This document shows positions 32,229-64,000 of a stretch of 64,000 nt of DNA, one piece after another. Location of the stretch: assembly GCA_964506645.1 (NCBI GenBank), contig CAZDML010000002.1, forward strand, positions 3,012 to 67,011. Direction: 5' to 3'. This stretch comes from an uncultured Elusimicrobia bacterium (lineage in GTDB: Bacteria; Elusimicrobiota; Elusimicrobia; 2-01-FULL-59-12). The notes below the pieces were generated by a model. The model was not told where the DNA came from and ran no database searches. It worked only from the letters and a program-made list of their open reading frames with translations. A program made the translations under genes and the position numbers. How positions within the stretch are numbered: the stretch's first letter is position 1; each line of letters opens with the position of its first letter.

Positions 32229-32249
32229 GGCAAGCTCCTTTCAAACGGT

Positions 32250-37217: not shown

Positions 37218-37237
37218 AGGTTTATTCTCCCGCAGTG

Positions 37238-37265: not shown

Positions 37266-37367
37266 GGCTTTTTTTACATGCAACGAAATGGGGAGAAATG
37301 GCCCAAAACAGCTCAGAATGCAGAATTCAATGCTCAGAGCGATAAAAAGACTACCTATATATAAGAT

Positions 37368-37404: not shown

Positions 37405-39021
37405 TTATTCCGGGCGCAACTGCTTCATGAACTCGCTGATTTCTTTGTCGTTGGGGTCGATTTCCAGCACGCGGCTCCAGAGCTTGCGAGCGCGGGTATG
37501 GTCATCGAGCAGGAAGAAGGCAGAGCCCATGATCTTCATGGACGTCACATCGTTCGGGTTTAGATCCAGGATGTCCTGGCATTTCTTGATGGCGACATCG
37601 TACTTGCCTTCCAGAATCGCCTGGCGAGCATCGAAGATCTTCTGATCGACCGGGCTGAAGAGTTCCGGACCCTTCGGCCGTTCGGTCTTGTCAAGATTGG
37701 TGTCAGCTTCCATCTTGTTGAGGAGCGACAGGAGCTTCTCGTTGCGCGGATCTTTGAAGTACGCCTGACGCAAAGCAGCAATCGCGCTCTTGGTGTCGTC
37801 GTTGACGTAAGAGAGCACGCCCTTGCGCACCATCGCCGCCGATTCCTCATTACCCATGGCTGACGGTACGTTCGCCACCACTTTCTGGAATTTCTCAACG
37901 AGCACCTGGACTTTCTTGTTTGACGGATCCACGTCCAAGGACGCCTGCAGCTGTTCCTGCGCTGCCAGGAAGTTCCCGGCTTCCATTGCCTTGTAGGCTT
38001 TTTGGATGAGCGCATGGACGTTTTCTTCGCGGCGTTCCAGGACGGAACGGCCAAATTTAAAGGAGACGGAGATGCGGCTTGAGGTTCCCAAGGTGTGCAG
38101 GCCCAAGGCATAGTCAAAGGTCAAGCTCTTTATGGAATAGCCAAAACCCACATCGGTTTCGCGCAGGCCTTCACCCAAGTCGTATTGAATCCCCACACGG
38201 CCTTTGAATTTCTTTGTAAAGCCAAATTCCCCACCCAAATGGAGTCCGGTGTTGGCCGCGAGGTTTTTATCGATATCTGTCGAAAGCAAGAGGCGGCGTT
38301 TGAAGAACTGGTCGGAAAAACCGAAGCGGAAAACCAGAGGCAGTGTGTCGGACGTATCGCCCGAGGTCTTGGCGTAGACGTCCCGGATGGTCAGACCAAA
38401 GCGACGCAGACCATCGCGCGTATCGAGCAGAGCCCCCAGGTCAGCTGCCAGAGAAGAATCGGACGAGGTATCCACAGCACGAGTGATCTGGCGAATCGAG
38501 GTTCCAATTGCCACATGGTCGACCACCTTGCGGCCGTAGGAGAAGCTGTTGGCCGATTCGCTCACCTGGAAGCCACCGCCCTTTTCTACGCTCGTATAGG
38601 TCTGCGTGTTTGGGTCGATTTTGGCGGTCACACGTTCAAAGCCGCCGCTGGAGAGTTGTGTCATGCTGACGCCCCAGGCGCTGCCTCCCTTCTTGGACGG
38701 ATGCACATAGGAGTAGAAATTGTATTTGGTTTCACCGTAGAGGGTGGCCTGCAGGAGGGTCAATTCTTTGCGGGTGAGCTGGGACATGCCCGCCGGGTTC
38801 CAGTAGGTGGCGCTGGCATCATCCGCAACGCTGACGAAGGCACCGCCCATGGCCAGGCTGCGGGCGCCGGCGCCGTAGGACAGGAATTCCGTCACCTGGC
38901 CGCCGGTGGCTTCAGTGTGGCCAATCGACGGAACGAGTGCGATGAACAAAATTAAAACGCACGCTCTCTGTAGAGAGAACATGCGCCCAAAAAACCCAGC
39001 AAAGGTCTTCGTTAAGTTCAT
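37405..39021 (-). CDS. FadL/PorV-family-like outer-membrane beta-barrel (N-terminal ~330 aa) fused to C-terminal TPR repeats
   Basis: Signal peptide (..CVLILFIALVPSIGHTEA). The N-terminal motif ..FLSYGAGARSLAMGGAFVSVADDASATYWNPAGMS.. matches the FadL/TodX/PorV family plug-hatch region (FadL: ..GLGRAYSGEGAIADDA..NPA..). Alternating beta-strand patterns follow to about residue 330. The C-terminal 200 aa are TPR-like (..AYKAMEAGNFLAAQEQLQASLDVDPSN.., ..ILEGKYDVAIKKCQDILDLNPND..). No Shine-Dalgarno-like sequence. Confidence 0.5.
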   Translation of the reverse strand: MNLTKTFAGFFGRMFSLQRACVLILFIALVPSIGHTEATGGQVTEFLSYGAGARSLAMGGAFVSVADDASATYWNPAGMSQLTRKELTLLQATLYGETKYNFYSYVHPSKKGGSAWGVSMTQLSSGGFERVTAKIDPNTQTYTSVEKGGGFQVSESANSFSYGRKVVDHVAIGTSIRQITRAVDTSSDSSLAADLGALLDTRDGLRRFGLTIRDVYAKTSGDTSDTLPLVFRFGFSDQFFKRRLLLSTDIDKNLAANTGLHLGGEFGFTKKFKGRVGIQYDLGEGLRETDVGFGYSIKSLTFDYALGLHTLGTSSRISVSFKFGRSVLERREENVHALIQKAYKAMEAGNFLAAQEQLQASLDVDPSNKKVQVLVEKFQKVVANVPSAMGNEESAAMVRKGVLSYVNDDTKSAIAALRQAYFKDPRNEKLLSLLNKMEADTNLDKTERPKGPELFSPVDQKIFDARQAILEGKYDVAIKKCQDILDLNPNDVTSMKIMGSAFFLLDDHTRARKLWSRVLEIDPNDKEISEFMKQLRPE

Positions 39022-39336: not shown

Positions 39337-42300
39337 CTAGTGGATAACCCCGATCTTGCGGATAACCGTCGCGGAACCCTTCTGACCGCCGGCCTTAATC
39401 TGAGCCAAATAGCCGCCCTTCGATACTTTCTGACCGGCTTCGTTCGTGCCATCCCATCCGCCCGGAGGCACCGTATTCGGGCCCTGACGACCGCCTTCAG
39501 TACCACCTGGGAAGCTCCAGTGCATGACGCGGTAGCCGAGCAAGTCGTAGATCGTAATTTCTACATCGGCGTCGCCAGCCAATAGATAGGTAATGAAGGT
39601 CTTCCCTTCCAGACCACCCTTACGTGTATCCACCGGGTTCGGGTAGTTCGACACTTCCGAGATGATGTCTTCCGGCAGACCCGTGTTTACCGTCTCAGAA
39701 ATCGTCGACCATTCGCTGGCCGTCCCGGCGCCGTTGATCGTCTGAATCTGCCAGCGGTAGAAATTGTTCGGCGAACGTGCCGCACCTGTTTCCCCATTTA
39801 GGTAGACCAACGGTGAGGTGGTGCTAGCGCCGCCAATGCTGGCTGCACCGCCTGGCGCATGCAGACTGTAGGCAGGCGCGTTGTTGTTGATGTTCGATCC
39901 GAAGGTGTAGCTCGGAGTCGAGGTCATGATAATTTCTGTCGGCACAGGACTCGTTCCTTCGAACTGACGGATCTTGTAAGCGAAGATGCCCGACGGGCCG
40001 TAATCCGACGGCACCGGCCACTGCAGGGTGACGATACCGGTGTTGGACGTCTTCGGCAGATTGATGAACTTCGACGGTGGCGCAGGCTTCGTGACATCGA
40101 CATGCACAGTGCCCATCATCACCGGCGATGGCGGCAATGTCAGGCCGTTGATCGTAGTAATCGTGCGCACGAAGAAGTAATAGGTCTTCGTATCTTCCAG
40201 ACCCAAACCGGTCAGCGTGATCGGAGGCGTCTGACTCAGCGAGACCCAGCCGGTCAAGCTCGGAGCAATCGTCGTATTGCTTGACGCGCTCATACCCACC
40301 TGATAGGTCACGGTCACATTGGCCGGCAGAGACGGAGGCACCGTGGTCCAGTGCGCGGAGATCGCACCCTGATCATGGACCCAAGCTTCCGGCATATAGA
40401 CGCCTTCCAGTCCCGAGACAGTGCTGGTCGTTAAATCCGGACGCATGGTCACGGTGCCCACTTGCACTGTCTGGAAGTTAAAGATTGGCACAAGAGCGCT
40501 GCGAATCGGGTAGACGTTGCTTTGATCCTGCAGCGCGGTGAGCGGAGTCATGGTTATAGCGCCTGCAGAGGCCACTGAAATGCCTGCACTATGGCCCTGG
40601 GTCGCCGCACCGGATCCGTCGACGGTACCGATATCTGCGGAGACTAGCAGCGTAGCCCCCGACGTATTAATGCTCACTGCTGTCGAGAACGGAATGGTCG
40701 CCAGTCCACCGATAAATCCACTGGAGGTCGTGCCCCATGGCAGCGAGCCCAAGAGTGAATCGCCGGCGTCCAGCTTCCCGTTATAGTTGGTATCCAGATG
40801 CACATAAAGTCTCGAGAAGTCGCCATCCCCCACCAAGTTGGGCGGAGTTCCCGTCGACGTGGTAATGGTGCCCAGTTGCGTTAAGGTCAACGAGCTCACC
40901 ACCACTTGATTGATACTGGGCTGGATGGTCACACTCATCAATGGAACACTCGCCTCGCCTTCCAATGCCGACCCCGGAGCCAGCGATTGGCCGCTCACGC
41001 GCACTGTCAGCGGGCTGATGGTCACCTGGCGCGATTCCACGGGGATGCCATTCGGCAGCATCTGATCGACACCGATCGGCGTGAACGAACCGCCGAACCA
41101 GCCTGGATCAATAATCGTCAGACCTTCCGTGTTGTTTGAGGTCGCGCCCGTCGCGATATCGTACGCTACAAAGTAGGTTTGTGTCGTGGGGCTCAAGAGC
41201 TGATCTTTAATCGTCAGCTGCACCGTCTTGGGATTGGTGCCATTCGGGTCCGGCTGCACGAAGGTGCCCGAGCTGATCAATTCATCCGTCGTCGGCTCCA
41301 GGATGCCATTGAAATTCACGTCACGGTACACTTTCACGAGTCCAATATCGTCATTGGAACCCTGGGTCTGCACGGCGCCGGCACCTTTGCGCGAGATCTT
41401 GAGCGTGTTAAACAACGCCGTAGATACATTCGAGCGCAGAGAGAATTTCAGGATTGGAATGTCTTTATCGCCCTGTGTCGCATACACCGGCGTAATGCTC
41501 GTATCTGGTGAAAACGACACTTGATCCGGATATTCCGAGAACGCCGCCAGTTTTGTCGTCAGCGGCGGATTGGCCGAGAGTGTCACAAGGTCCGGTGTGA
41601 TCACAGCGAAGGATGTCGTCGCCGATATAAGTCCTCCAATACTCACCGCTTCGCCCGCATCCTGTACACCGTTGTTATTCAGATCGCGGTAGACCGGCAC
41701 AAACGGGTTAATGTCATAGGTAATGAAGTAGTTCATCCCCGTAATCTTATCGGTCACATTCGGAATAATCTGCTGCGCCGTAAAGGTAATGGCGCGTACG
41801 CTGTTCGTAAAGTTATCGGTGCCCGGAGTAATCTGACCCGGTTTTGTCCCCGCATCACTGACCAGGGTATCATTCACCACGCCGCGAACATTGGTCGCAA
41901 TCGCATGCACCGCCGCAGTGGTGCCCAGGAAACCGCGGGTGAGACCGGTGAAGTTGCCCGCCAAGTCGTTGTTCGCATAGCGAATGAGTTCGCTACCGAC
42001 CAACAGTACAGCCGGACCGATAGGGAAAGACGTCGAGACAGCCACCTGCAAGCTTGAATCCGACGCCGTGATGGCCTGAGACAGTGTTGAGAGCGGAAGG
42101 GTGTTGCCATCATCGAAGATGCCGTTGTCATTGATATCTTTCCACACGTTCATGCGCAGGACATCGCCGTCGTCGGGTTTAGCGCCTGTACGGGTGAGTG
42201 TAAGGCCGGTCCAGATGACGGTGTTTTGATTGACCTTCAAATTCATCTTCGCTACCGGCACATTTGTTGCATTCTGCTGAATGACCGTCGGCAGGAGATC

Positions 42301-45300
42301 CGTAAAGACAACGGTCATCGTATCAACCGTCGCGCCAATCACATGGTCGCCCGTCTGCATCGGGAAGTTGGTCGGCATGACCGAGTGGATCCCGTCGCCG
42401 GCGACAAGCGCCCCCACGGTGAAAGCGTCTTTGGTGATCGCGTTCAGTGCGAAAGCATGACCCGCCGTAGCCGACTGGCTAATATCCGCCACAACCCAGT
42501 ACGTCGCCGGCGCAGTACTAATGAGCACATACCCCGGACTGCCGAGGTTTGGATCATTGACAGCCAAATGAATCGAGCCAAACTGAGACACACCACTGCC
42601 GACCAGGGTGTTCTGAATACCAATTTCTCCATCGGACGTACGGTAGAGCGTGTCCCCGCTATACACTTTCACCGCTGAGAGATCGCTGTCAGCACCTGAA
42701 AGGCCGCCCGGTGTGCGTCCCAGATCCAGCGAGAACCAGCGGATGTTGTAGTCGTCGATATCCTGCAATGAGAATTTGATCAGCGCTACGTTGCGCATGC
42801 CCTGCGTGTAGTTCACACCGATATAGTTCGGCTGTTCCACGCTGTTCACATAGGTATAGGTCGAGTGGATGGCCGGCGGCGTCGTGCAGGAACCAGACAC
42901 GCAGCGCGAGAGACCCGTAAGCACGTTGCCCAAGATGCCGGTATAGCCCAGCACTTCGGCGTCAATCACCATCAAACCGCTGGTCGGCATACCGCTAGAG
43001 GTGTTCAAGGTGGCCGTCACATCGTTGCTCATGACCGGCGCCAAGAGGTGCGGCAGTGGATAGTTGCCCGTATCTGTTGAGAAGTAATAGGTCGAGCTGG
43101 CCTGCAAGCGCTGCGGTTTGGGAATAATCGTACGCAGTTTCGAGCTGGCAGGCATGTTCGTGCCCGACATCGTATTGGGCGCTGAGATGTTCACAAAGAC
43201 CGGCGAGCTCACGGTGACACCGATCGTGTTCTGCGGGGTCGCAATATTGGCCATATCGAAGGTGATGAAATAGTTGTTGAGTTTGCGGACGGCCGTATCT
43301 ACTTTGAGCGGGCCGGTCGTCAGGTCGTTCAAATCCGTGGAATACGTCACGGTATCGAAGTTAATGCGTGCCAGGCCGGCGGCCGGGTTACCAAATACCC
43401 CTGAGCCCAGGGGTGGCGAGTCGACGGCGACGTTAAAGATACCGGTGCCTGCACGGTCGTACCATACTTTGACACTTGTAATATCGCTGTCGGCAGCCGT
43501 TCCCGCGCGCGACACCGTGATACCGGTAAACCCAGCACGGGCATGGTTGGTGCGCATATCGAAGCGTAGGACGGCCTGATTGGTTGCACCTTGCTGCAGG
43601 TAATCGCCGACCGTTGTATTTGTGGAGGTCAGCACCACCGTATCCACATATTCCTTGACGTTGGTGATATAGGTTCCCGCCGTCTGTCCGAGAGGCGGCA
43701 GCCCGATATTGCCCGAATGATTACCCACCAAATCCGGCGTATCAACAACGAAGTACGAGGTCGATGCAATTTCTACACCGAGAGAATCCTGCGAGTTTAC
43801 ATTCGCCAGGTAATTAATATCCATGACGATAAAGTAATTCTTCGGTGTGACAAGAATTTCCTGACCATTTAAAATACCGTTTGGATCGACCAGATCCAGA
43901 TAGGCCTGGCCCTCCACATCCGTGCCTGCCGTATGGGCAGCGGCCACGGTGCCACTGCTGGCGCGCACCACACCCGTCAACTTGTTGTTTGTCAAATCCA
44001 AAGCGGTATAGGTCATTTGCTCATCATCAATCCAGACCAGACCCGGAGCCGGCGGATAGGCACTGGCGTCGTTGACCGGAATCACGGTGGTGGATGCATC
44101 GACATCCGCGGTCAACACTTCATGCGGAAACTCATAGACTTTGGATGTGGACGTCACCAGTGTATCGGCATTCACTTCAAACAAGCCGTCATTGTTGTTG
44201 TCGTAATACACGCGGATCGCATCAATATCACGAGCATGGTTAAAGCCGTTCGGATTGCCACGATCCAGTCGCAGATGGTTCCAGATCGCGCTGTTCACTA
44301 AGCCGCCCCCAAGCGGGTTGCGCACGGCCAGTGTCATCTTCATCGCGACCACATCGGTGTCTCCCTGGGTCGCCACTTGGCCAATGTTAAAACCGTTGGC
44401 CGGGTCGTTCACACGGGTCAGATCCAGTTCGTCCGTGCTCGGCTGGACAGGCACCTGCGTAGAATTAATTTGTGAGAATGCGCCCACGGTCCCATCGGCA
44501 GGGAAGATATCGGACGGGTTACGGACAGACGCGCCTTGTGTATTAAGCGACGCTGATGGGCTTAAGTGATACGCGATAAAGACATAGCTGGTCGTCGGCG
44601 TCACGATCAAATTGGAATTGAGTGTAATCGAGGTGACTTGGTTCACAAACGTGGCACCGCTGGTGATATCGCAGTTATCCAGCGATGGGGTAAAGACGCC
44701 ATCGCTGTTACAATCTTTATAGATTTTCACGTCCGCGATATCCGTGTCGTCTCCGGTTCCCGTGCGGCTGACACGGATACGGTTCACCGCACCCTGGAAG
44801 GCATCGGTCCAGAAACCCAGGCGCAACATGCCAACCTGGTCGCTTCCCTGGCTGACATAATTTTGTTGTCCGAGCCCTGTCCCCGGATCCCACCAAGCAG
44901 CAAGATCCTGTCCATCCACGCGAATCGTAGCGGGCTGACGAAGAACGGGCGAGGTGCTCGTAACCACAGGGAAGTTGTTACTGGCCATACCCAGACCCAC
45001 CACTGTGACTTGGCTGGCGGCCGTGACTTTGAGACCGAGGTTGGCTGGCAGTGCAGTCACCACATCGCTGGCCACACGGACTGAGACAAAGTAGTTCTTT
45101 GCAGAAGCCGCTGTAATCGGCAAGCTCAGGTTCGCAAACGTAGCGACTCCATTTACGAACGTCGTGCTACTGACCATCGGATCCGGCTGGACTCCTTGAT
45201 AGGTCGATTCTGGCTGGAATTTCCCGTCGTTGTTAATATCGTAGTTCAGATCCAGCTCTGCAATGTCACTATCGGCGAGCGCCCCCGACGCTAGATTCTT

Positions 45301-57300: not shown

Positions 57301-60300
57301 AGCCACATTACTGGTGTAGATGCCTGGGGCCCCACGATTGCGGTTCCAATAGTGGTCAACCGCCTGGATCGTGATCGGGAAAGCCACACCAGCGGTTGCT
57401 GATCCCGGCAGCGCTGGATTGGTTTTCCCCGCACCCCCCGGTGAGGACCCTTCATCGTAAGTCTGGTTCGCGGTTAAGACGCGCAATTTCACCACCGGGC
57501 CCGGATAGACTTTTACCCAGGTCGATTGATCCATCGTGTAATAGGAGCCTGAGCCGCCGTCGGACGGGTCGTTCTGATCGCGCACCGTCATGAGCCAGCC
57601 TTTCAGGTTGCGCGTCGGGTTGGTCGAAGGCGATGTCGGGTTGTTCTGCGTGCGGTAGGTTACCGTGCCGATCGCCACACCGTTATTCAAACTCATTGCC
57701 AGGAAGATCGGCGTCAGGTTGGGATCGCCGCTGAGCGAGGTATCCGAGTGCATATTCACCACCGGCATCGGCAGGTTGTTCGTAATCAGGTTGTAGTATT
57801 GGTCCACCAGGCGCACCGTGAAGGTGCTGGCAATACCCGCGTAGTAGAAAGCAGGGCTTCCGCTCTTACCGCCGTTGGTCTGATTATAAGGAGGCAAACC
57901 CGGTACCGCGGTTTCGCCCTGCATCACCAGCTGCAGGCGCTGTGTACCGACCGAGGCCGTATCGGCACCCACCGTAAAGTTCGAAGTCACGTAATTCGGG
58001 TTCGTGAGGACCGAGGTCGCCAGCACCACCTGCGAACCGGCGGTCACCGGTACAAGCGAGAACGTGGTCACACCCGAAGCCAACGTCAAGGACGACGGCA
58101 CCACCGCATAGGTGTCACTGGAAAGCGAGATCCAGACCTTATCCAGACTGTCCGAGGTGTCCGTGTTATAGAACGAGTCGACCCCATAAACAGTTGCCAC
58201 GAGTGTATTTCCGGCCAGGATACCATTCGGTGTACCGCTCTTACCCAGCGGTGTTGTCTGGTATTTGCCCTGGACACGCGACTCACCCGGCAGCATCACC
58301 AAGAGACGATTGGCCGTTCCGGGATTGATCGTAATATTGCTCGAGGTATTTCCTGTACCGGCACCAGAGACAGCCATTGTCTGCACGCCGGCACTTACCA
58401 TGGTCTGATTAAAGATGGTGGTTCCGGAAGAGAGCGGCTTATTGCCCGGATCTGTATCAAAAGAATCGGAGGTCGTCGCCGTAATCGTCGGGTTGCTTGA
58501 CGGCGTGACATTCCAATATTGGTCGACGGCGTTCACAGTAACTGTAAAAGGCGCCCCAGCAGTAAAGCTCAGAGGAATGGTGTTCTTGCCGGCCGGGGCT
58601 GTCGTTTTACCCCCCGCGTTGGTTTCGCCCTGGATCAAGACCTGTAATCCGACGGTTGTGTTGGGCACGACATTAATGCCCGTCTGATTGCCCGCTGAAA
58701 CGGCCAAGCCCGACACACGAGACACGGTCAGTGTACGGCCCAGCGCCGCTTTCAGCAGAGTGAGGCCATTGGTAAAGACATGAGTACCGTTATCCGATCC
58801 CGGTACAAAAGTGTAATTTGCCGGAAGGCCGGCGCCTGCACTTTCTGGTCCGATCGTAGCATCGGGATTGGCAATCGAGAAACCAACGGTACCGTTATAC
58901 GACAGTGCCACACCATTGGCGTTATCGAGCGCATTGACTGTGATGTCACGCGATGTACCGGCCGTGATATTGGTCGTCGTATCCACAATCACCTGCAGAT
59001 GATCGGCGGGCAAGGTCACGATAAAGTTGTTGCCGTTGCCGATGTCCGAGTTGGACTCGATGTTGCCGGCATTATCAATGGAGCGCGCCTTTGCCCAGTA
59101 GCGCTTACCGGAAATCCAAATACTGTTACTCGAGTAGCTCCAGTTAAGCGTTCCCGAAGCGTCGAGCCAGGAGTTGGCTTCATCGGTTCCGACGCGTGAG
59201 AAGGAGGAGTTGTTGACTGCGTTAAAGCTGGACGGATTGTAGAAATAGTCCTCCGGTCCCGCCGACTGGCCGGTGGGCGCGTTATCCAAACGCAGGGAGA
59301 TCTGCACTTTTCGGATGCCGGCTAGACCGACATCGGCCGCAGTTCCTGCGATGCTGGCCGGGTTCTGCTGCACGTCGTTATCGGCGGGTGATGACACAGC
59401 ACCGTGTGGCGTATCCGTATCAAAGATAACGGTCGACGTTGTGCCAGGGGTTTCCGTATTGCCCACCGCATCCACCGCATAGGCATGAACAATATAAGTC
59501 GCCCCGTTAGTCAGATTGACGGCATCAAGACCTGTGTTCCAATAGGACCAGGAAGCCGTCGATGTCGCAATTAGGAAATATTCCGTAGTCGCACCGAAAT
59601 TCGCGCCGTTAAAGTAGTGGGTCGCACCACCGCTGAGTTCTTCCACTGAGACATACACACGAGAAACACCCGCCGGATAAGTATTCGGGTCGCTGGCCGT
59701 TCCGGAAATAACCGTCATCGGTTCGATGATGGAATGGGCAGCGCCGTTCACCGGTTTCTGGATCAGTGTGATGGGCGCCGTTGTATCGAGAGTAAAGGTG
59801 ACGGTGTTGTACGCCACTTCAAAGTTGCCCGAACGGTCGTTGGCACGCGACTGGATGGTGTAACGGTCATCGGTGTACACGTTGGTTGAAATCGCCGGAC
59901 CTGTGGTCACTGACCAGGTGTAGTTGGGCAGTATGCCCGGGGTGACTTGTGCCGCCAACGGGAAGTTGAGGCTCGTGCCGGAGTTATCAAAGAGCGCCGT
60001 ACTCGGGTTGTAATATTGGCCCGAAGAATTGCCAATACGAATCTTGACACCGCCTGAGGCGATACCAGATCCGTTGGAACTGACATCACTGGCGGTCCCG
60101 CTGATTACGAGCGGCCCGGAAGACAGTCTCACATTGTTGGTGGGCAACGTCGTTTGTGATGTCGGTGAGCTGCTATCCACCGTGAAGTTAATGCCCCCCG
60201 CGCCCGTGACAAAATCAAACGTGGAGCCGAGGTTGCCGATCGGAATATTACCGGCATTATCGCGTGCGCGCACAAACATCTTGTAGCGGGCGTTGGAGCT

Positions 60301-62127
60301 GAAGGCGCCGGAGAGACTGTTGTAGCTCCAGGTGCCACTCGTAATGCCTACGACTGTCGCGCTCAACCACGGCGTACAACCGCTCGAACAATCGCCTGTC
60401 CAGCCACTGCCGTTCCAATAGGCATTGAGGGTATCCACAAACGCCACATCCACCGCCAAAATACCTGATCCTGTCGATGTATCGTCCATGGTGCCCGAAG
60501 CTAATGTCACCGCTTGTGGCACGCCACCGTTGGACGGCACGGAAATCTGCGACGTTGCTGTGCTGCTGTCGTAAAGTAGAGAAACCCCTGTGCCCGCCGG
60601 AACATCGGTGTTGAGCGGGCCAAATTCTACATTGCCCGCCTGATCGGTCGCGCGGCTGACAAAACGATAGCTGATACCGCTCGTAAAGGCGCTCTGCAGA
60701 CCGCCTGGCAGGCTGGAGGTCCAGGTGTTGGGAATCGGCGTGGTGCTGTTGGTGACAGTCAGCGTCGCGTAGTTCGGATCGGTAGCGCTGAAGTTAGCCC
60801 CATTCCACCACAAATTGTTGCTCAGACGCTTCACGGCCAATTGCACCGCACCGGTCGAGATCCATGCCGGGTTATTGAGGGCTCCGCTCAAGTTGTCCGT
60901 GGCCGTCCCGGAGACAGAAACCGCCGTGGTCGTTGTGAAATAGAGACCGCTGGGCGAGGAGATGGTGGTGGTCGGTATCAACACGTCGTAAACAAAGCGG
61001 TTCGTCACCGTGGTGACGTTACCGGCATTATCGCTTGCGCGCACCGCAAGGTCGTAACGGTGATCGTTCTTAAAGAAGAGGCTGGCATGCGTGTAGGTCC
61101 AGTTGGCCGTCGTCCCCAGCGCACCGATGAAGAACGGTCCGCCGGCAGTAAAGGTGCTGCCTGTCCAGTAGTTCGGCCCCCCGCCATCGACATCGGTCAG
61201 AGAAATCGTGACAGTACTGATGCCAGACGGTGTTCCACCCGGATCGCTGGAGGTTCCGGCAAACGGCGTGGAAATCTGAATCTGCGAGTGGAATGCGTTG
61301 TTGAGTGGCTGCGAAATGGTAACGCTCGGCACAGACGTATCATAGGTAAAGGTTGAAATCGTACTGATGTACGTGTTGCGATGCGGCGTCACTCCCGTGC
61401 CGGTCACGTTGTCCTGCACCTGCAGTTTCAGATAGTAGTTCTTATCTGACACCAGCGATGGCAAGGTGTAGGTCCAGGACGAGACAAAGATGGTCGCCAC
61501 ATTCGAAGAAATGGTCGGGATCCAGGCGGCGCCGTTCCAATAGACTTTGCTGCCGCCCGTACCACTGGAGAGTTGCACGTTTACATTGTTAACACCGGCC
61601 AAGTCATCGGACATGGTGCCCGTCAGAATGACCGTTGCGCTCGACACCGAGGCATTGGCTGCTGGCCACGTTAAGGAAGCCGTCGGCGATGTGAAATCGA
61701 TATTGAAGTTGAGGCTTGTCGTTGCGCTGATGTTCCCACCACCCGTTCCATCGCCCAGCGTGGTCTTGTCTTCTGAGCGCACATCGAGCGTCATGACATG
61801 GCTCATATCGGTCGGCCAGGTAATATCCACTCCGCTTTGCACATCGTAGTCCCAGTTGCCTGTGCCCGAACCCGATACCGAGCCGCCCGCATTCAGCCAA
61901 GCCGTTGTGGCATTCACGCTGGTCGAAGAGAACGTCGCGCCGTCCCAATAATAGGTAGAAGATCCCCGATGGATTTGTTCCAGCATCGGTGTCCGTTCCC
62001 TGAAGCGAGGTATTGTTCGCCACCACACCCAGTTCGCTCGGCTGATAGGAGATATTGGCTGTCGGTGTGGAGATGATAGGCGCGTTGGGTGCCGTCTTAT
62101 CAATAAGCATCGAAAATGACGAGACAT
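39337..62127 (-). CDS. giant extracellular multi-Ig-domain protein, main reading frame (7596 codons). It has, in order, He_PIG/HYR-like Ig modules, ~35 tandem ~95-aa invasin/intimin-like (Big-type) Ig domains, a divergent beta-rich region, seven ~230-aa modules with a DxNxDG motif, FN3, and a T9SS/Por-type (FlgD-Ig-like) C-terminal sorting domain
   Basis: A single 22.8-kb ORF. The Big-like repeats (about 58500-48450) share the pattern ..LLPGET(A/S)xPG..GK(T/S)G(T/S)P..QTAG..F.VTV.AVD.(Y/F)(W/Y)N..........V.L.(T/S)SD.., for example KLQLLIPGETAVAGYIAGGAKGKTGLPTTATAGTNYNVTVRLTDSYYNV. The DxNxDG modules (about 45300-40700) include DINNDGKFQPE at 45216-45248 and WKDINDNGIFDD at 42105-42150. FN3 is ..VTLQWPVPSDYGPSGIFAYKIRQFEG... 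The C-terminal tail ..NYPNPVDTRKGGLEGKTFITYLLAGDADVEITIYDLLGYRV..GGYLAQIKAGGQKGSATVIRKIGVIH (39650-39337) resembles the Por_Secre_tail/FlgD-Ig domain. The first ~55 codons of this ORF (62127-61965) are out of frame; the real N-terminus continues in the 61604-64000 frame. Confidence 0.8.
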   Translation of the reverse strand: MSRHFRCLLIRRHPTRLSSPHRQPISPISRANWVWWRTIPRFRERTPMLEQIHRGSSTYYWDGATFSSTSVNATTAWLNAGGSVSGSGTGNWDYDVQSGVDITWPTDMSHVMTLDVRSEDKTTLGDGTGGGNISATTSLNFNIDFTSPTASLTWPAANASVSSATVILTGTMSDDLAGVNNVNVQLSSGTGGSKVYWNGAAWIPTISSNVATIFVSSWTYTLPSLVSDKNYYLKLQVQDNVTGTGVTPHRNTYISTISTFTYDTSVPSVTISQPLNNAFHSQIQISTPFAGTSSDPGGTPSGISTVTISLTDVDGGGPNYWTGSTFTAGGPFFIGALGTTANWTYTHASLFFKNDHRYDLAVRASDNAGNVTTVTNRFVYDVLIPTTTISSPSGLYFTTTTAVSVSGTATDNLSGALNNPAWISTGAVQLAVKRLSNNLWWNGANFSATDPNYATLTVTNSTTPIPNTWTSSLPGGLQSAFTSGISYRFVSRATDQAGNVEFGPLNTDVPAGTGVSLLYDSSTATSQISVPSNGGVPQAVTLASGTMDDTSTGSGILAVDVAFVDTLNAYWNGSGWTGDCSSGCTPWLSATVVGITSGTWSYNSLSGAFSSNARYKMFVRARDNAGNIPIGNLGSTFDFVTGAGGINFTVDSSSPTSQTTLPTNNVRLSSGPLVISGTASDVSSNGSGIASGGVKIRIGNSSGQYYNPSTALFDNSGTSLNFPLAAQVTPGILPNYTWSVTTGPAISTNVYTDDRYTIQSRANDRSGNFEVAYNTVTFTLDTTAPITLIQKPVNGAAHSIIEPMTVISGTASDPNTYPAGVSRVYVSVEELSGGATHYFNGANFGATTEYFLIATSTASWSYWNTGLDAVNLTNGATYIVHAYAVDAVGNTETPGTTSTVIFDTDTPHGAVSSPADNDVQQNPASIAGTAADVGLAGIRKVQISLRLDNAPTGQSAGPEDYFYNPSSFNAVNNSSFSRVGTDEANSWLDASGTLNWSYSSNSIWISGKRYWAKARSIDNAGNIESNSDIGNGNNFIVTLPADHLQVIVDTTTNITAGTSRDITVNALDNANGVALSYNGTVGFSIANPDATIGPESAGAGLPANYTFVPGSDNGTHVFTNGLTLLKAALGRTLTVSRVSGLAVSAGNQTGINVVPNTTVGLQVLIQGETNAGGKTTAPAGKNTIPLSFTAGAPFTVTVNAVDQYWNVTPSSNPTITATTSDSFDTDPGNKPLSSGTTIFNQTMVSAGVQTMAVSGAGTGNTSSNITINPGTANRLLVMLPGESRVQGKYQTTPLGKSGTPNGILAGNTLVATVYGVDSFYNTDTSDSLDKVWISLSSDTYAVVPSSLTLASGVTTFSLVPVTAGSQVVLATSVLTNPNYVTSNFTVGADTASVGTQRLQLVMQGETAVPGLPPYNQTNGGKSGSPAFYYAGIASTFTVRLVDQYYNLITNNLPMPVVNMHSDTSLSGDPNLTPIFLAMSLNNGVAIGTVTYRTQNNPTSPSTNPTRNLKGWLMTVRDQNDPSDGGSGSYYTMDQSTWVKVYPGPVVKLRVLTANQTYDEGSSPGGAGKTNPALPGSATAGVAFPITIQAVDHYWNRNRGAPGIYTSNVADNVATVGNDVYVQGNSTTPMNQGQVVFASFTPRTAQSGWSFSAVDTDSATISSQTISSVNVKASSNTAVFQVLLPGETNVPGSGGKTGTPTAQTAGVAIQAPGVIVNLVDAYSNPIKNVSGLPFPTVQLAASAASLPMDQYATYPPSLVMTNVGNNGYNATFIASVTLVTAGSNHQIEATDPGLTYAAADSTFFTVSANTLSRYQIVAPGETADAGIPADFGGAGNPAGKTGTPNTQTAGQAFIVTVNATDDWYNIISTNVATYLTSDDAYGTPGLTAQTKALTSGSTTYSVTLLSAQASNGASIPHVLTATGTLNSDVSQNIPMQVASPTKLHILLGGETAVPGNVAGGGKSGSITAATAGTSYSLTVRLTDPYYNVVNNPGGAVNLSLTTTDPYDSPDPDTTKSINSGTYFTTYGHTFKSASTTGWTVTVTTNTGPGYTYASAGPLLVNPDTNAGNPHLLVILLPGESLSQGNVAASGKTGTPFGGVSPVAGSTFTVTVVGTDQYYNLVNDNPVVRVGANASLYTQYPGGASFGLSGGSGTVVTAVNRSTTTASYFVNVVTSNTYNFTASTSTSFTVISGSATLLQLLVQGQTAAPGSPTGKSGSPATPFTAGQMYSATVNATDSYFNLISTAAAKIKMIESDPNATQTNIQQDLTSGTTVFALQFITASGSGWTVRVSTVTGQRLADEVSAALPVVANSPTKIMVTVPGTTLNAGSGISGSPTGATAGAVWKATATITDAYNNAVGGVATGNVWFQTTDPYDTDGTTQPLASGTTSFAIQMYQAGSQTVSMFHTGAYTSGSAAAIPITAGSADRVLVVLPGETYQAGQPPYAPATGGTGGKSGTPTSWIAGTPQIVTVYAVDGYWNQTNSGSSLTLSSPDDPFATGVGAKSLTSGTTTFSVTLFRAVDYNGSSQTIRGNIVGLSNPTYTSPAFTLYPDSGASSPRYLRLLVNGESALPGSTLLKSGPRTGPASDAHFVAGSTITFTLDATDTWGNIISTNVTVNVQTDDTNAKPSPSLSIGLTQGTSTFLWNFVTKRTTDYDLSLAPFTASTATATGFNSAYEHLTIDPDVTKKNLQILVQGETPVQGTGYWPTNNGGKTGAIVTQTAGVAVPITVRVVDDYWNLVEANTTGNPVNIYVITNDSNVVSLGLNPLINGAGTSNGVLSDNTSIILRTATATGWTLTSSGTASGTPFNIHLSSPVKVNAAGLSKLQILLPGETAAPGSVTGKTGTPNTQTAGIAFTLPIGAIRAVDAFYNTVSTVTIATVTLSDIYGTPASQSVSLSGGQSVATLGVTLAVSTDTFSPQVLYANAYNLTTATSAAIPVNQGAPVRLQLLMPGETAVPGFGKSGSVSATVAGATYATTVRMVDAKYNKVTSGTMPTVQVTATDPYAINPAANSLSAGQATFNITFKVANTAPGWTVGAATTAVSGITVSSDTSNFVVVNATTTDRVLVVLPGQTYTPGTARGFLGAITDAVAGTAYISTVTITDRFYNTKTDITPQIQMITSDPYDTDPATTVVNGPTAYTINFRKAPGPWTVFVSTITGYGGAPLISTTTDPITVHAAAPTKLIVLVPGETADPGRAPYDAGQSGGKTGTANTQTAGTPFNVTARLVDSYFNLAESATTFLQLNTDDTNAQSGIQGLGSFQTGSGGQTGQVVITGVTLITRNPAGWQLMVSTATGDPYTMGYSTWIPVQANTAQKLLVLAPGETSQEGNTTGGGKSGSPDSNYPTTPGTLDAFAVGTTYFVEVRAVDAYYNIVTTTAPVVTLTSSDGNAVPVSTDSPKILTGGYQLIPFMMKTAENAAGNASTQTVTASATGFTLSAPYQSGVMTMAPDSVNAVQILVPGQTAAPGSATGKVTTSISTATAGTSFNVTVRTVDRFFNKTNTTPPGMTLASSDPYDNRTAEYQADPLSIALTAGSTIQAWTMTTASTTGWTLTASAPGLNVASDVSPAIPVQSGAAQTLQVILPGESVLAGSGTYNLNGLGRTGTPTAWTSGVSNTLTVNAVDKHFNVVPTASISVKVTPSDLFVSPQTISLIGTTNYAFTLQTATPTASFTALRMSGTPLDASSSSVTSSQITVNANSVVKLQILVPGETAVPGSTTGKTSVSITTQAAGVAFPVTVNVVDLNWNKVPANVKVQLTTTDPYAPALNPQTLSAGATIFQMVFARASSSWTITASTTSDSVTTVSSNTSAVVPVTAGPAAKLQLLIPGETAVAGYIAGGAKGKTGLPTTATAGTNYNVTVRLTDSYYNVQSAATMPSVLLTSTDPFDNESAYLGGNPQSLSAAVAVYGVTPVTAGTWTYTAADQSALGYSSDTSTNVFVQAGAPTKLLIALPNQTLVAGSGINGTAATQIAGVDMPATVYVTDAYSNIVSTGRNPIYVGTNDAYDTDPGSYSLSSGQLQVSSINVQTAGLTTVTAVSNDTNAPALTLASSTFTVTAAGASKLQLVLPGETAVPGNVLMTRGVSGSPNAQTAGVVFYPTVNITDGFWNLVASATGTLRVTSSDPNDQSTGPWTSDGLDPVAINVTTGSYTFPMTLLTSTNTGWTLTAQDLGTSNYTQSLTAAIAVSANSSGGATRKLLTVLPGETPSYGTATGKAGSPSAYTVGNLLQVSVYVTDKFFNTITVPPANPGANTADVQISIVGNQDPYAVNPSTQAINAASGQTTFVYTLYKATTEFFRADDVTVGHGTAWTSSISSQFTASPKSATKLLLLLPGETATPGSGAPGKTGTVNTFVAGSTYTATLQVSDTYFNAVTSHLTEQVAVRTSDPYDTEPATQTISNGQSVANVTLQFRTASTGTASAVDTNLVDPTTTWATSVSPDTGSFNVLAGSATKLMVVMPGEAPLQGSATGRTGSPTSQVAGTAFVTTVYLTDAQYNLVSLGTMPEVLLTSNDSDVNWQSPANPSQLLNGVGYMPWTVVASSAQLSFVITASTTPTTPVGTTAITSGASNALRVYPGPKHHLHITGLPTTSSAGVGFSGCVVMHDAYHNILSTGPHTSTSTVTSISFNAETTGNGYLTDGNQDPPWLPGTTTFNLITGSGQKCLTNYFSLRAAGSRWLQAVDDSDPINVNSTRGWTIDTNNVWSPTGVVYSTPSYITVTPGAPSQWVVDPAGDQNVPAGTLSSLGRWPVTARLADPYDNYADSAGITVALTTANVSGVAGTISFDASASSAVPPVPTTSTVTNSSGAVSVYYYVSSHAGDYGAVRFSATVGAQPVANQSGRMITTGGDTSKLAFVSPPVSQTAGQDYLHLPLFTLERRDDFDNPTDYQGSTVQLDYTANGQVAVHAGRGFSSSNHDYEFQDPNLLGVPITNLAFSGGDTQKTFVYFDKMSSTPIEDGRVGTWTLRAYIGGTGYANSNVRTSYDLIVNPDAKAQIAFHNPVRTLVAGTPLSLTGNPNLSYLNLEIQDTYGNPTPVVSTATLFLASYRVVSSSYDAYGFSSSTSYFAAPPAPSFVNPITTVTINSGFWGTTFYYLDTNASENYTAPVSSPMLRAFSTGTIDGALLSTGTQKVTISPNALYQIGFLSAPSALVAGTTSQQFRFASEDIFGNPSPITNSAAVFTLTTDVPGTASFATPYSTSAFQSGTSSATIAVGQSTMTFYMKDTLAGDRTVTISRNGFVSANSTYTVAPAPASQLVFATPSRYLVAGTTVQYEPNYSVGAPTNTVITVRAMDPYLNISSVTANTVVNFYVSNSTGAYGYTDASNLSLFKYIPGPVLPNVLPVQMLAGNSSVSMYYYDTQQGTRTMVAFDSVGALTSATTTHFISPAPAAYLTIEPINNVNNPMPVNNLLPFGNIVARDQFGNVARGDVKNGQYYTGTVQFGTSGSTTTVQIYDATDLAHVVSSYTFKVADAGTYSNLLMTDSVQETLHVSATDFVTVVPPVVPSNNAFDPNEDTLQGWTNDAARIVPVHSYGDLVTAGVVMTPVDLSPVPTTDPTYNAKQVLLLGTRWQGKTSLAQGDGTVPVDPQYLPVPMMRLSFQVQPPTYSSSTIISQIVLTKNLASGALADSDIAELDLNYDINNDGKFQPESTYQGVQPDPMVSSTTFVNGVATFANLSLPITAASAKNYFVSVRVASDVVTALPANLGLKVTAASQVTVVGLGMASNNFPVVTSTSPVLRQPATIRVDGQDLAAWWDPGTGLGQQNYVSQGSDQVGMLRLGFWTDAFQGAVNRIRVSRTGTGDDTDIADVKIYKDCNSDGVFTPSLDNCDITSGATFVNQVTSITLNSNLIVTPTTSYVFIAYHLSPSASLNTQGASVRNPSDIFPADGTVGAFSQINSTQVPVQPSTDELDLTRVNDPANGFNIGQVATQGDTDVVAMKMTLAVRNPLGGGLVNSAIWNHLRLDRGNPNGFNHARDIDAIRVYYDNNNDGLFEVNADTLVTSTSKVYEFPHEVLTADVDASTTVIPVNDASAYPPAPGLVWIDDEQMTYTALDLTNNKLTGVVRASSGTVAAAHTAGTDVEGQAYLDLVDPNGILNGQEILVTPKNYFIVMDINYLANVNSQDSLGVEIASTSYFVVDTPDLVGNHSGNIGLPPLGQTAGTYITNVKEYVDTVVLTSTNTTVGDYLQQGATNQAVLRFDMRTNHARAGFTGITVSRAGTAADSDITSVKVWYDRAGTGIFNVAVDSPPLGSGVFGNPAAGLARINFDTVTYSTDLNDLTTGPLKVDTAVRKLNNYFITFDMANIATPQNTIGVTVSSPVFVNISAPNTMSGTNMPASSKLRTIIPKPQRLQASSTYYFSTDTGNYPLPHLLAPVMSNDVTATLNTSSGMPTSGLMVIDAEVLGYTGILGNVLTGLSRCVSGSCTTPPAIHSTYTYVNSVEQPNYIGVNYTQGMRNVALIKFSLQDIDDYNIRWFSLDLGRTPGGLSGADSDLSAVKVYSGDTLYRTSDGEIGIQNTLVGSGVSQFGSIHLAVNDPNLGSPGYVLISTAPATYWVVADISQSATAGHAFALNAITKDAFTVGALVAGDGIHSVMPTNFPMQTGDHVIGATVDTMTVVFTDLLPTVIQQNATNVPVAKMNLKVNQNTVIWTGLTLTRTGAKPDDGDVLRMNVWKDINDNGIFDDGNTLPLSTLSQAITASDSSLQVAVSTSFPIGPAVLLVGSELIRYANNDLAGNFTGLTRGFLGTTAAVHAIATNVRGVVNDTLVSDAGTKPGQITPGTDNFTNSVRAITFTAQQIIPNVTDKITGMNYFITYDINPFVPVYRDLNNNGVQDAGEAVSIGGLISATTSFAVITPDLVTLSANPPLTTKLAAFSEYPDQVSFSPDTSITPVYATQGDKDIPILKFSLRSNVSTALFNTLKISRKGAGAVQTQGSNDDIGLVKVYRDVNFNGILEPTTDELISSGTFVQPDPNGTNPKTVQLTIKDQLLSPTTQTYFVAYDIATGATSNNTEGLTIIDPGWFGGSFTPIGVDQMLPNGIPVESRQVTISPLTVRVSGQSLAPGSALEGEASVPLMSVTIQPSINQVVVSSLTLTQLGTITTSTGTPPNLVGDGDFSRLYVHLDTNYNGKLDAGDSLLGSLPWGTTSSGFIGGLATIPFSTAVSINTSGATLLVSADIGTVDGSGAATQGHSAGISVASAGAITMTPLTALQDQSNVYPIRSALVPIFNFQTVQVGTVTMRPDLTTSTVSGLEGVYMPEAWVHDQGAISAHWTTVPPSLPANVTVTYQVGMSASSNTTIAPSLTGWVSLSQTPPITLTGLGLEDTKTYYFFVRTITTINGLTLPPSPVMMGTVHVDVTKPAPPSKFINLPKTSNTGIVTLQWPVPSDYGPSGIFAYKIRQFEGTSPVPTEIIMTSTPSYTFGSNINNNAPAYSLHAPGGAASIGGASTTSPLVYLNGETGAARSPNNFYRWQIQTINGAGTASEWSTISETVNTGLPEDIISEVSNYPNPVDTRKGGLEGKTFITYLLAGDADVEITIYDLLGYRVMHWSFPGGTEGGRQGPNTVPPGGWDGTNEAGQKVSKGGYLAQIKAGGQKGSATVIRKIGVIH

Positions 62128-63991
62128 TCAGGACAAAATTGCTCTGTGCATTATTGGCCATGTCGATGGCACGCATCACGACCGCATAGCGGGTATCGGT
62201 CACCAGACGCGAATCCAGATTGCCGCCATTGGTGTACTGCCAGGTTAGGGTCGACCCTTCCGCCGCTAAAAAGTTCGGTGTCGATTGAACGAGGACGAAG
62301 TTACTGCCATTGAACCACTTGGCCGAGGTTAAGTTCTGCAGGGCAATTTGAATGGTGCTCACGCGTACGTCATCATTCGATGTTCCAGTGATATTAGGCA
62401 GGGAACGAATGCCCGTGAGACCCATGAGCGGCAGCGTGACGGTCGCCGTCGGCGCGACGTTATCGTAAGTCACGGTCACGCCCACGTTCGCAGGAATGTC
62501 GGTCACGAGCGGACCAAATTCCGCATTGCCCGCAGTGTCCGAGGCGAGGCTCACGATATAGTAAGACGTACCGCTGACCAGAGACGTAATGAAGGCCGCC
62601 GGCATGGTGGATGTCCAGGTGTTGGGCACCGTCAGGCTGGTGTTGGTTACCGTAAAGGTGCTGTAGGTCGGATTGGCGCCCAGGAAGTTCGTTCCGTTCC
62701 ACCACTTGGCATCGCTTAAGCGTTCTACGGCCAGTTTTACACCATTCACCGGCACGCTGGACGGATTCACCGGTGCCCCCACGAGATCCGATGCGGTCCC
62801 GCTGATTAAGGTCCAGGACGTCACATACCCCGCGAGCGGGAAGGTCACGACCGAGGTTGGTTTCACCACGTCGTAGACGAAGCGGTTCGTGGTGGTTGAA
62901 ATATTGTTGGCCGAGTCGATTGCACGCGCCAATACATCGTAGCGATGGTCGTTCTTAAAGAAGAGCGATGCATGGGTGTAGGTCCAGTTTGCGGTCGTGC
63001 CTTGCGCCGCCAGGTAGAACGGTCCGCCCGCCGTAAAGGTGCTGCCGTTCCAGTAGTTCCCCGCATCGATATCCGTTAAGGCGATTGATACCGTGCTTAC
63101 GCCCACGGGCACCGAGCCCGTATCCGAAGACACTCCGGCAAACGGCGTCGACACCGAGACCGCCGAGTAGAAGCCGTTGGCCACCGGCAAGGTGATGCTG
63201 ATGTTCGGCGCCGAGCGGTCGTACGTAAAGGTGGAGAGCGCGCTCGTATAAATGTTCGGGTTTGACAACACGTTATCGGTGGCTTTTACACGCAAGTAGT
63301 AATTCTGATCATTGGTCAGAGTCGGCAATGTATACGTCCAGGACGAGCTAAAGAGCGTTGTGGCAACCCACGTCACGTTGCTTTGCGTAGTGGTCCAGCT
63401 GGATCCGGTCCAGTAATACTTTGTCACCGTGCCGCTGGAGAGTTCCAAGGCCAGGGCACTCACGCCGGAGAGATCGTCCGACATTGTTCCGGTGACGATC
63501 ACAGTCGCACTCGATACCGCTGCGTTGACAGAGGGCCAGTCAATGGAGACCGTGGGCGATCCAAAATCGATCTTAAAGGTGGTCGTGGAATAAGAACTAA
63601 AATTGCCTGAGCCGGTCCCGTCGATCAGCGTCGCGTTATCTTCCGAGCGGGTTTCCAACACCATGCCATGACTCATATCGGTCGGCCAATCAATATCCGA
63701 ACCGCTGGTGTTGTTGTAGTTCCAGGCCGTGCCCGCACTCTGCCAGGCCGTGGTTGCATTGACGCTGGTAGAGGAGAATGCAGCCCCATCCCAATAATAG
63801 GTGCTGCCACTCAAGACATAAGAAAGACGAATGTCCACACGTTTAATCCCGGAGGGGTTCGTGCCCGGATCACTATCGGTTCCACGAATCTGCGAATTGT
63901 TGACGATATGACCGATATCGGACGGCTGATACGCCGCGCCGTTGCTCGGCACGCTGACCGTCGGTGCGTTCGGAGCAGTCTTATCGATCAA
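60650..63991 (-). repeat. long tandem intragenic repeat: about 1.88-kb unit (copy 1 63988-62108, copy 2 62107 to about 60650, becoming diverged), each starting LIDKTAPNAP; the window edge cuts a preceding copy
   Basis: Protein-level alignment of the two copies. Shared blocks include STYYWDGA.FSSTSVNATTAW, WPTDMSH.M.L..RSED, SSATVI.TGTMSDDL.GV, SSWTYTLP.L..D.NYYL, STFTYD, STPFAG.SSD, and GSTFTAGGPF..A.GTTANWTYTHASLFFKNDHRYD...RA.D.A.N..T.TNRFVYDV. At the DNA level, GCAGTCTTATCGATCAAGAT matches GCCGTCTTATCAATAAGCAT at the copy starts. Confidence 0.5.
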
Positions 63992-64000
63992 GATCGTATA
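61604..64000 (-). CDS. 5' portion of the same giant gene in a different frame (open at the window edge; frameshift relative to the main frame near 61960-61970)
   Basis: The frame is open from nt 64000 (..YTILIDKTAPNAP..; the track's 'M' at 63991 is a TTG Leu codon). It encodes about 680 aa of Ig-like modules ending ..GTDTDAGTNPSGI, then runs out of frame. The main ORF resumes the homologous sequence (..GSSTYYWDGATFSSTSVNATTAW..) in another frame. Copy 1 has ..NPSGIKRVDIRLSYVLSGSTYYWDGAAFSSTSVNATTAW.. and copy 2 lacks about 38-40 nt there. Confidence 0.7.
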   Translation of the reverse strand, partial: YTILIDKTAPNAPTVSVPSNGAAYQPSDIGHIVNNSQIRGTDSDPGTNPSGIKRVDIRLSYVLSGSTYYWDGAAFSSTSVNATTAWQSAGTAWNYNNTSGSDIDWPTDMSHGMVLETRSEDNATLIDGTGSGNFSSYSTTTFKIDFGSPTVSIDWPSVNAAVSSATVIVTGTMSDDLSGVSALALELSSGTVTKYYWTGSSWTTTQSNVTWVATTLFSSSWTYTLPTLTNDQNYYLRVKATDNVLSNPNIYTSALSTFTYDRSAPNISITLPVANGFYSAVSVSTPFAGVSSDTGSVPVGVSTVSIALTDIDAGNYWNGSTFTAGGPFYLAAQGTTANWTYTHASLFFKNDHRYDVLARAIDSANNISTTTNRFVYDVVKPTSVVTFPLAGYVTSWTLISGTASDLVGAPVNPSSVPVNGVKLAVERLSDAKWWNGTNFLGANPTYSTFTVTNTSLTVPNTWTSTMPAAFITSLVSGTSYYIVSLASDTAGNAEFGPLVTDIPANVGVTVTYDNVAPTATVTLPLMGLTGIRSLPNITGTSNDDVRVSTIQIALQNLTSAKWFNGSNFVLVQSTPNFLAAEGSTLTWQYTNGGNLDSRLVTDTRYAVVMRAIDMANNAQSNFVLNVSSFSMLIDKTAPNAPIISTPTANISYQPSELGVVANNTSLQGTDTDAGTNPSGIFYLLLGRRDVLFDQRECHNGLAECGRLGIGFGHRQLGLRCAKRSGYYLADRYEPCHDARCALRRQDHAGRWNGWWEHQRNDKPQLQYRFHIADGFLNVASSQCLGVERNGHSDGHHVR

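Follow-up and report, generated by a model that had tools for sequence, protein, structure and literature searches.

A giant Ig-like repeat protein of Elusimicrobiota with a type IX secretion-like C-terminal domain, encoded next to a PorV-TPR fusion

The window analyzed here, a 64,000-nucleotide stretch of contig CAZDML010000002.1 from an uncultured Elusimicrobia bacterium (GenBank assembly GCA_964506645.1), contains the 3' 24.7 kb of one Elusimicrobiota gene, corresponding to the C-terminal 55-60% of a giant protein. The chain that it encodes is built of immunoglobulin (Ig)-like and other beta-rich modules and ends in a C-terminal domain (CTD) that resembles the type A CTDs of type IX secretion system (T9SS) cargo. 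It is followed directly by a gene for a PorV/PorQ-family outer-membrane barrel fused to tetratricopeptide repeats (TPR), termed here PorV-TPR. Colinear orthologues at 46-60% identity and the divergence of its repeats show that this is a real gene, a product neither of chance nor of repeat collapse. Very large Elusimicrobiota proteins were already known at survey level, as were the automated labels 'T9SS type A sorting domain' and 'PorV/PorQ family' on relatives. The apparent novelty lies in the architecture of the family, in the lengths that it covers and in its conserved association, outside the Fibrobacterota-Chlorobiota-Bacteroidota (FCB) group, with a PorV-TPR fusion.

An earlier note on this DNA, made from its letters alone, had described a giant gene of 7,596 codons in one minus-strand frame and about 680 in another, still open at the window edge, with a product of more than 8,200 amino acids (aa) that might be much larger. 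The listing of open reading frames (ORFs) and the translation agree with this description: the conceptual product within the window comes to 8,221 residues, and orthologues of the protein have been called with lengths of 13,583 to 17,969 aa. The upstream frame, open from the edge at nt 64000, gives 680 codons of good repeat sequence down to ~61,962, beyond which it runs out of register until a stop at 61,604. The two frames meet at ~nt 61,962, between 'NPSGI' and 'SSTYYWDG', and it is from there that the 7,596-codon ORF encodes the true protein, its first ~55 codons being an out-of-frame reading of one of the repeats of the N-terminal (A) zone. When aligned with a sister repeat at ~63.8 kb, 1.9 kb upstream, the junction was found to be without 38 nt (23 + 15), which in the sister repeat are present and encode the strand 'KRVDIRLSYVLSG'. 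Moreover, 12-14 residues at this position are retained in every orthologous repeat copy. Since the sister repeat and all orthologous copies keep the stretch, the frame change genuinely sets this gene apart from all its relatives, and the 38-nt gap reflects a lesion or else a fault of the assembly. The 22.6 kb past the gap stay free of stops. Exact 90-nt queries taken from the window end matched nothing in genome or metagenome contig collections.

The main ORF is rich in Thr (13.9%), Ser (10.0%), Ala (9.5%), Gly (9.3%) and Val (9.1%) and nearly Cys-free. The giant, repetitive, beta-rich protein of surface type that the earlier note had proposed is supported. We defined its zones by self-BLAST of 150-aa windows and iterated hidden Markov models (HMMs), and this self-comparison returned four zones with the boundaries given in that note (Table 1). 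The modules of the A zone are grouped into super-repeats of ~630 aa, and eight of them show the predicted type of ending, D-x-(A/S)-(G/N)-N. The families to which they had been assigned, He_PIG and HYR, gave no match; weak matches to Big_3_2 (E 0.009) and Big_13 (E 0.2) were found instead, and A-zone homologues are annotated with PF19077, PF12245 and PF13750 (Big_13, Big_3_2, Big_3_3). For the B array, the note had counted ~35 Big/invasin-like domains of ~95 aa, a figure replaced by HMM segmentation with 27 domains of 112-140 aa (mean ~124) and one partial copy, each found by the family HMM at E 1e-24 to 1e-36 and sharing the motif L.LLPGET..PG..GK(T/S)G.P..QTAG...VTV.AVD.YYN. AlphaFold2 (AF2), supplied with an alignment of the 27 paralogues, models the B domain as an Ig-like beta-sandwich with a predicted local distance difference test score (pLDDT) of 93.5. 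The invasin label found no support: the domain matches no Pfam family, Big_1 and Big_2 included, and its PDB matches are generic Ig domains (Ig domains of glycoside hydrolase family 2 and intimin D0-D1 at E>0.008; FUS1 at E 0.002).

Downstream of the array, a divergent stretch leads into a zone with seven DxNxDG loops. All seven loops proposed earlier are there, though not at a regular spacing of ~230 aa, as the distances between them range from 121 to 688 aa. Weak matches to GEVED (25.8 bits, cut-off 24.4) and SdrD_B (25.4 bits, cut-off 29.7) fall exactly on the loops, and they are all that was found in place of the suggested likeness to dockerin or EF-hand. By their motif the loops resemble Ca2+-binding loops and may bind calcium; the uncharacterized beta-rich modules with such motifs total ~2,500 aa. 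Next comes the single fibronectin type III (FN3) domain of the earlier description, which is FN3-like here, with a Pfam fn3 match below threshold and homologues annotated as fibronectin type III or PF00041. Overall, Pfam and NCBIfam are almost blank over the 7,596 residues, and PDB sequence searches of the A, divergent and DxNxDG zones returned nothing useful. The labels He_PIG, HYR, Big_1 and dockerin were dropped for lack of matches.

The earlier note had itself raised the possibility that the gene is an assembly chimera of collapsed repeats. The B copies are mutually only 27-47% identical at the aa level, and the longest pair of DNA repeats within the gene spans 144 nt and is 79% identical. 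Because the repeat copies are old and this diverged, repeat collapse is not a concern, and a collapsed-repeat chimera is ruled out. In an orthologue on an ENA nanopore contig (L005, 15605-22005), several tandem A-type super-repeats of ~630 aa are near-identical, whereas the copies in the window are diverged, suggesting that repeat number varies between lineages.

The terminal 115 residues form the domain that gives the protein its proposed sorting end. It spans NYPNPV and KGGYLAQIK and runs to IRKIGVIH-COOH, with NYPNP, KGGY and the terminal RKIGVIH as its visible motifs, and its AF2 model (pLDDT 94.3) places a beta-sandwich like that of solved T9SS CTDs at the extreme C-terminus. The top NCBIfam matches are the CTD portions of T9SSA_dep_M6i, TIGR04183, PorU and PorZ, followed by a weak FlgD match, and the best Foldseek matches of the model are again PorU and PorZ. 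The profile of the domain aligns end to end with residues 1056-1150 of PorU (6za2). Within an alignment of CTD relatives (A2, 78 sequences), 76 matched the CTD portion of the PorU model and 28 matched TIGR04183 at E<0.01, and some relatives are named 'T9SS type A sorting domain-containing protein' by NCBI. Models of type B CTDs gave CHU_C (PF13585) at E 0.16 (12.6 bits vs a cut-off of 27) and no NCBIfam type B (TIGR04131) match. Most homologues carry a precomputed PF13860 (FlgD_ig) assignment, and the profile matches FlgD structures at E 3.5e-5 over 34 residues; judged by sequence, the domain is a divergent member of the FlgD_ig superfamily.

This domain is both portable and well conserved. 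A profile search over 1.84 billion representative proteins gave 2,015 clusters at E<=1e-10, and of the 150 best representatives, 75, with lengths of 121 to 6,506 aa, end in [KR][IVL]G[IVL][IVLM][HRK]-COOH. At least 16 complete proteins that share the terminal motif have clear signal peptides, and the passengers of CTD relatives include BNR, PD40, Big_5 and F5/8-C domains. Identity to the closest complete orthologue is 82% in the CTD, against 59% in the remaining protein. In where it sits, how it folds, its motifs and its portability, the domain matches a T9SS type A CTD, and its conservation is, if anything, above expectation. A large family of short proteins of ~130-190 aa (P0053, P0059, P0071, P0110, P0115 and ~60 others) consists of a signal peptide, the motif AMAYVPGNPLM.LPGM and this CTD.

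The gene directly downstream bears out the PorV/FadL-like neighbor of the earlier note. Its product has a signal peptide, a barrel of ~280 aa (residues ~43-323) and a C-terminal TPR region of ~200 aa (~330-538), and it matches the PorV/PorQ family model NF033709 at 107.9 bits (cut-off 90) over residues 43-323, covering model positions 3-326 of 326. Its orthologues carry the NCBI name 'PorV/PorQ family protein', and a 100%-identical copy (P0121) lies on an NCBI contig of 78,047 bp. The spacer between the two genes (39022-39336, 315 nt) is AT-rich, and its coding strand carries a promoter-like sequence of TTGACA type, which may serve PorV-TPR as a promoter of its own.

Homologues of the C-terminus and of PorV-TPR come almost entirely from metagenome-assembled genomes (MAGs) of Elusimicrobia, Elusimicrobiota or Endomicrobiales, and the order of genes is conserved among them. 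On OY969767.1, a 2.72-Mb MAG chromosome, the giant orthologue is called as 13,682 + 1,099 aa. Downstream of it come PorV-TPR, then proteins of 1,609 and 762 aa, a PHP-family gene and a DAGK gene, in the order also seen in the window. Contig JGI 3300050046 carries a 13,583-aa orthologue with downstream genes as in the window. In GCA_016929635.1, an Endomicrobiales MAG, a 17,969-aa orthologue is followed by a small ORF consisting only of a CTD and then by PorV-TPR; such CTD-only ORFs lie between the giant gene and PorV-TPR in Endomicrobiales loci (L024 9454-9909, L035 9566-9964). On a 93-kb ENA nanopore contig, ORF fragments that all lie on one strand and are colinear with the window gene extend over at least 54 kb. 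The gene start was not reached along this contig (L001, L004, L005), an apparent start in L067 proved to be another frameshift, and a metagenome scan with an upstream fragment returned weak matches only. Scanning the GTDB species genomes with a PorV-TPR alignment gave 566 relatives, of which the 80 best, nearly all from Elusimicrobiota, were examined. In 45 of these 80 loci, the ORF immediately upstream of PorV-TPR ends in the CTD, and in 24 of the 45 this ORF remains open over the full 10 kb of flank.

Table 1. Features of the giant gene and of the genes downstream of it (positions in the window)
Feature	Position	Strand	Basis
Upstream 680 codons, A-type super-repeat, open at the window edge	61961..64000	-	translation
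Frame junction, 38-nt gap	61955..61970	-	alignment to sister repeat and orthologous copies
Main ORF, 7,596 codons including the stop	39337..62127	-	ORF listing
A zone, Ig-like modules of ~125 aa, residues 1-1,650	59053..64000	-	self-comparison, weak Big hits
B array, 27 tandem Ig-like domains	48424..58668	-	HMM segmentation, alignment, AF2
Divergent beta-rich stretch, ~1,060 aa, no detectable family	45241..48423	-	Pfam and PDB sequence searches
Zone with seven D-x-[ND]-x-[DN]-G loops (45240-40794)	40725..45240	-	motif scan
FN3-like domain	39688..40089	-	Pfam fn3 E 0.038, below threshold
CTD, 115-aa beta-sandwich, T9SS type-A-like / FlgD_ig-like	39340..39684	-	profile, AF2, Foldseek
PorV/PorQ-family outer-membrane barrel with TPR, directly downstream of the giant gene	37405..39021	-	NF033709, UPF0164, Toluene_X, TPR
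1,677-aa E/Q/K/R/A/L-rich coiled coil with C-terminal TPR, without signal peptide	32250..37283	-	syntenic
685-aa protein, Pro-rich N-terminus followed by coiled coil	30171..32228	-	syntenic; L002 orthologue at 34% identity

With the gene, its architecture, the folds of the B domain and the CTD, the family of the neighbor, the phylum, the orthologue lengths and the synteny established, we infer from them an export route, an interaction between CTD and PorV barrel, a surface location and an adhesive function. In the proposed mechanism, the giant protein would be exported by Sec, as the signal peptides on complete relatives with the same CTD suggest; the CTD would then act as an outer-membrane sorting and anchoring tag of the T9SS kind, and the adjoining PorV/PorQ barrel would bind it in the role of a shuttle or anchor dedicated to it, with the TPR tail in the periplasm. 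The passenger would extend from the cell as a long fiber, probably stiffened by Ca2+, and serve in attachment. We favor this reading, in which Sec-dependent export precedes sorting and anchoring at the outer membrane through the CTD and PorV-TPR, and consider it on balance probable, because its closest functional precedent is provided by the pairs of T9SS cargo and cognate shuttle or anchor, SprB-SprF and PG1035-PorP (PMC9143113, PMC12618676).

As in SprB/SprF of Flavobacterium johnsoniae and PG1035/PorP of Porphyromonas gingivalis, a very large, repetitive, Ig-like surface protein adjoins a small FadL-like outer-membrane barrel, and a C-terminal beta-sandwich acts as the sorting or anchoring signal, a role documented for those proteins (PMC9143113, PMC12618676) and proposed here from sequence. 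There are also differences: the CTDs of SprB and PG1035 are of type B, and their partner barrels come from the PorP/SprF family, whereas here the CTD is type-A/FlgD_ig-like and the barrel belongs to the PorV/PorQ family and is fused to TPR. Furthermore, the host belongs to Elusimicrobiota and not to Bacteroidota, and the giant protein is 2-3 times the length of SprB. Type A cargo of the T9SS (gingipains, PorU, PorZ) shares with the family the terminal seven-strand beta-sandwich of ~100 aa, the PNP and GxY motifs and the terminal K-x-x-hydrophobic, as well as signal peptides, seen here on the complete CTD relatives. Unlike type A CTDs, the Elusimicrobiota domain stays below the curated cut-offs, contains insertions (RKGG.EG and G..GG..G.N), and shows an unusually high conservation across proteins (55-82%) together with the invariant -RKIGVIH end.

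Several observations weigh against a T9SS-like route. Neither the window nor the scanned related loci contain SprA, PorK, PorL, PorM, PorN or PorU (no whole genome was scanned), no T9SS parts were found near a small CTD-only gene, and ten CTD-bearing relatives included no T9SS core or attachment gene and no Peptidase_C25. Reviews treat the T9SS as confined to Bacteroidota/FCB, and in the literature searched no paper links Elusimicrobiota to it. The resemblance of the tail to Por_Secre_tail and FlgD-Ig, claimed in the earlier note, is borne out by its best matches being T9SS CTDs, but its scores do not reach the family cut-offs, falling just short for TIGR04183 (20.8-21.5 bits, cut-off 23) and staying below those of PF18962 (Por_Secre_tail; 13.9 vs 27) and PF13860 (19.8 vs 27). 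Similarly, PorV-TPR scores below the equivalog models of PorV (NF033710, 24.6 vs 250), PorQ (NF033711, 70.9 vs 220) and PorV2 (NF052325, 74 vs 325). The N-terminus and any signal peptide of the giant gene lie beyond nt 64000 and were not seen, and in the window assembly the gene is disrupted in frame.

The low CTD scores and the lack of T9SS core genes, both in the sequences scanned and in the literature on the phylum, would also be expected if the CTD were only a FlgD-type structural Ig domain or an anchor outside the T9SS, with the giant exported by another route. PorV-TPR would then form part of an envelope cluster of its own, present across the phylum and including a TPR membrane protein of FliG-like type and giant coiled coils, whose place downstream is incidental. 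The same type of domain occurs internally in other proteins, in 5-15 tandem copies, and its fold is therefore not exclusively a tag. As for the neighborhood, PorV-TPR is followed in nearly all 80 loci by a ~650-aa protein and then by EQKR-rich coiled coils of 700-2,100 aa, whereas no CTD-ending ORF was seen upstream in 35 of the 80 (several too short to tell); the barrel gene is thus tied more constantly to the coiled-coil genes than to the giant gene. A purely structural module would not readily account for the exact C-terminal placement and the -KIGVIH-type end, which half of the 150 best relatives share over diverse passengers and sizes, nor for the sequence and structure matches that put T9SS CTDs first, the better conservation of the CTD than of its passenger, and the small CTD-only ORFs that also lie directly upstream of PorV-TPR. 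We regard this explanation as somewhat unlikely.

That the gene is a pseudogene or a misassembly seems to us quite improbable, although the gap gives this explanation some substance. Its length cannot be divided by three, and the strand lost with it is kept in every paralogous and orthologous copy; the gap would split a protein of ~15,000 aa into an N-terminal part without CTD and a C-terminal part of 7,540 aa without signal peptide; in addition, neither the DNA nor the proteins of the window found a match in read-backed collections. Degeneration is at odds with the long stop-free run past the gap, and collapse with the divergence of the repeats, while the orthologues are intact. The split of the orthologue on OY969767.1 is due to a single-base indel that an independent short-read contig does not have, and hence such breaks do arise as assembly errors in this family of giant genes.

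A further step, which we put forward as an unlikely and speculative extension of the favored reading, is that Elusimicrobiota may run a divergent or reduced outer-membrane sorting system of CTD/PorV type that displays fibers of 14,000-18,000 aa and is genetically tied to the phylum-wide cluster of PorV-TPR, FliG-like/TPR inner-membrane protein and giant cytoplasmic coiled coils, an undescribed envelope-spanning apparatus for attachment or motility. The ~650-aa protein downstream of PorV-TPR in one Endomicrobiales locus (L024 11893-13752) has a signal peptide, one transmembrane helix, FliG_M/FliG_C-like domains and a C-terminal TPR. In the window's own clade the ~650-aa gene is absent after PorV-TPR.

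The size of the gene, which the earlier note had taken to be unusual, is not exceptional for its host: Elusimicrobiota are already reported to be enriched in proteins of >5,000 aa and >=10,000 aa (bioRxiv 10.1101/2023.11.21.568195; PMC11573180). The family resembles the huge proteins of Elusimicrobiota and other PVC-related (Planctomycetota-Verrucomicrobiota-Chlamydiota) phyla and the giant genes of Omnitrophota in its size class and its poor annotation. The surveys of huge proteins, for their part, give counts and not the architecture of the giant family, its CTD or its synteny with PorV-TPR, and neither the Elusimicrobiota huge-protein survey nor two preprints on Omnitrophota giant genes mention T9SS or type IX secretion. 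The protein also differs from adhesins of the type I secretion system (T1SS), such as those of LapA, SiiE and MpIBP type, as it has no repeats-in-toxin (RTX)/T1SS C-terminal signal and ends in a T9SS-CTD-like domain, and from the Big_1 arrays of invasin and intimin, as it has no Big_1, Big_2 or cadherin Pfam match.

Two coiled-coil genes follow PorV-TPR in the window. An orthologue of the 1,677-aa protein occupies the same position in locus L002 (42.8% identity) and in the JGI contig. The extreme AT skew of 30171-37283 on the minus strand (-0.26 to -0.35) is due to these two A-rich genes, whose products (1,677 and 685 aa) have Pro-rich N-termini and no signal peptides. The cumulative GC skew of the window switches sign near 36-38 kb, which probably reflects the composition of the giant gene, rich in Thr/Ser/Ala/Pro, and of the A-rich coiled-coil genes rather than a replication landmark. 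The strand bias noted earlier holds throughout: the ~31 window genes with family support, including those for serine hydroxymethyltransferase (SHMT), ArgJ, ArgC, FolD, MTHFR and transketolase, are all on the minus strand. One of the minus-strand genes (20991-24560) encodes a 1,189-aa protein with NHL beta-propeller repeats (ScyF-like, below the cut-off) and a C-terminal TPR, a layout that recalls envelope proteins with a propeller and TPR such as PorE. Two small genes of the RNase H superfamily, also on the minus strand, lie at 7406-7882 and 26343-26828, one matching RVT_3/RNase_H and the other RNase_H_2.

These data give a concrete description of one family of the huge Elusimicrobiota proteins, which surveys call essentially unannotated: a conserved Ig-like chain of 14,000-18,000 aa with a T9SS-like sorting end, encoded upstream of PorV-TPR in dozens of species. 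Three of its parts are candidates for new family models, namely the 124-aa Ig domain, the Elusimicrobiota-type CTD with its 2,015 clusters, and the PorV-TPR fusion. If the favored reading is true, a working CTD/PorV module outside the FCB group would bear on the evolution of the T9SS and on the parts that suffice for sorting, and would offer a clue to the way in which cells that are very small and often associated with a host attach to their partners.

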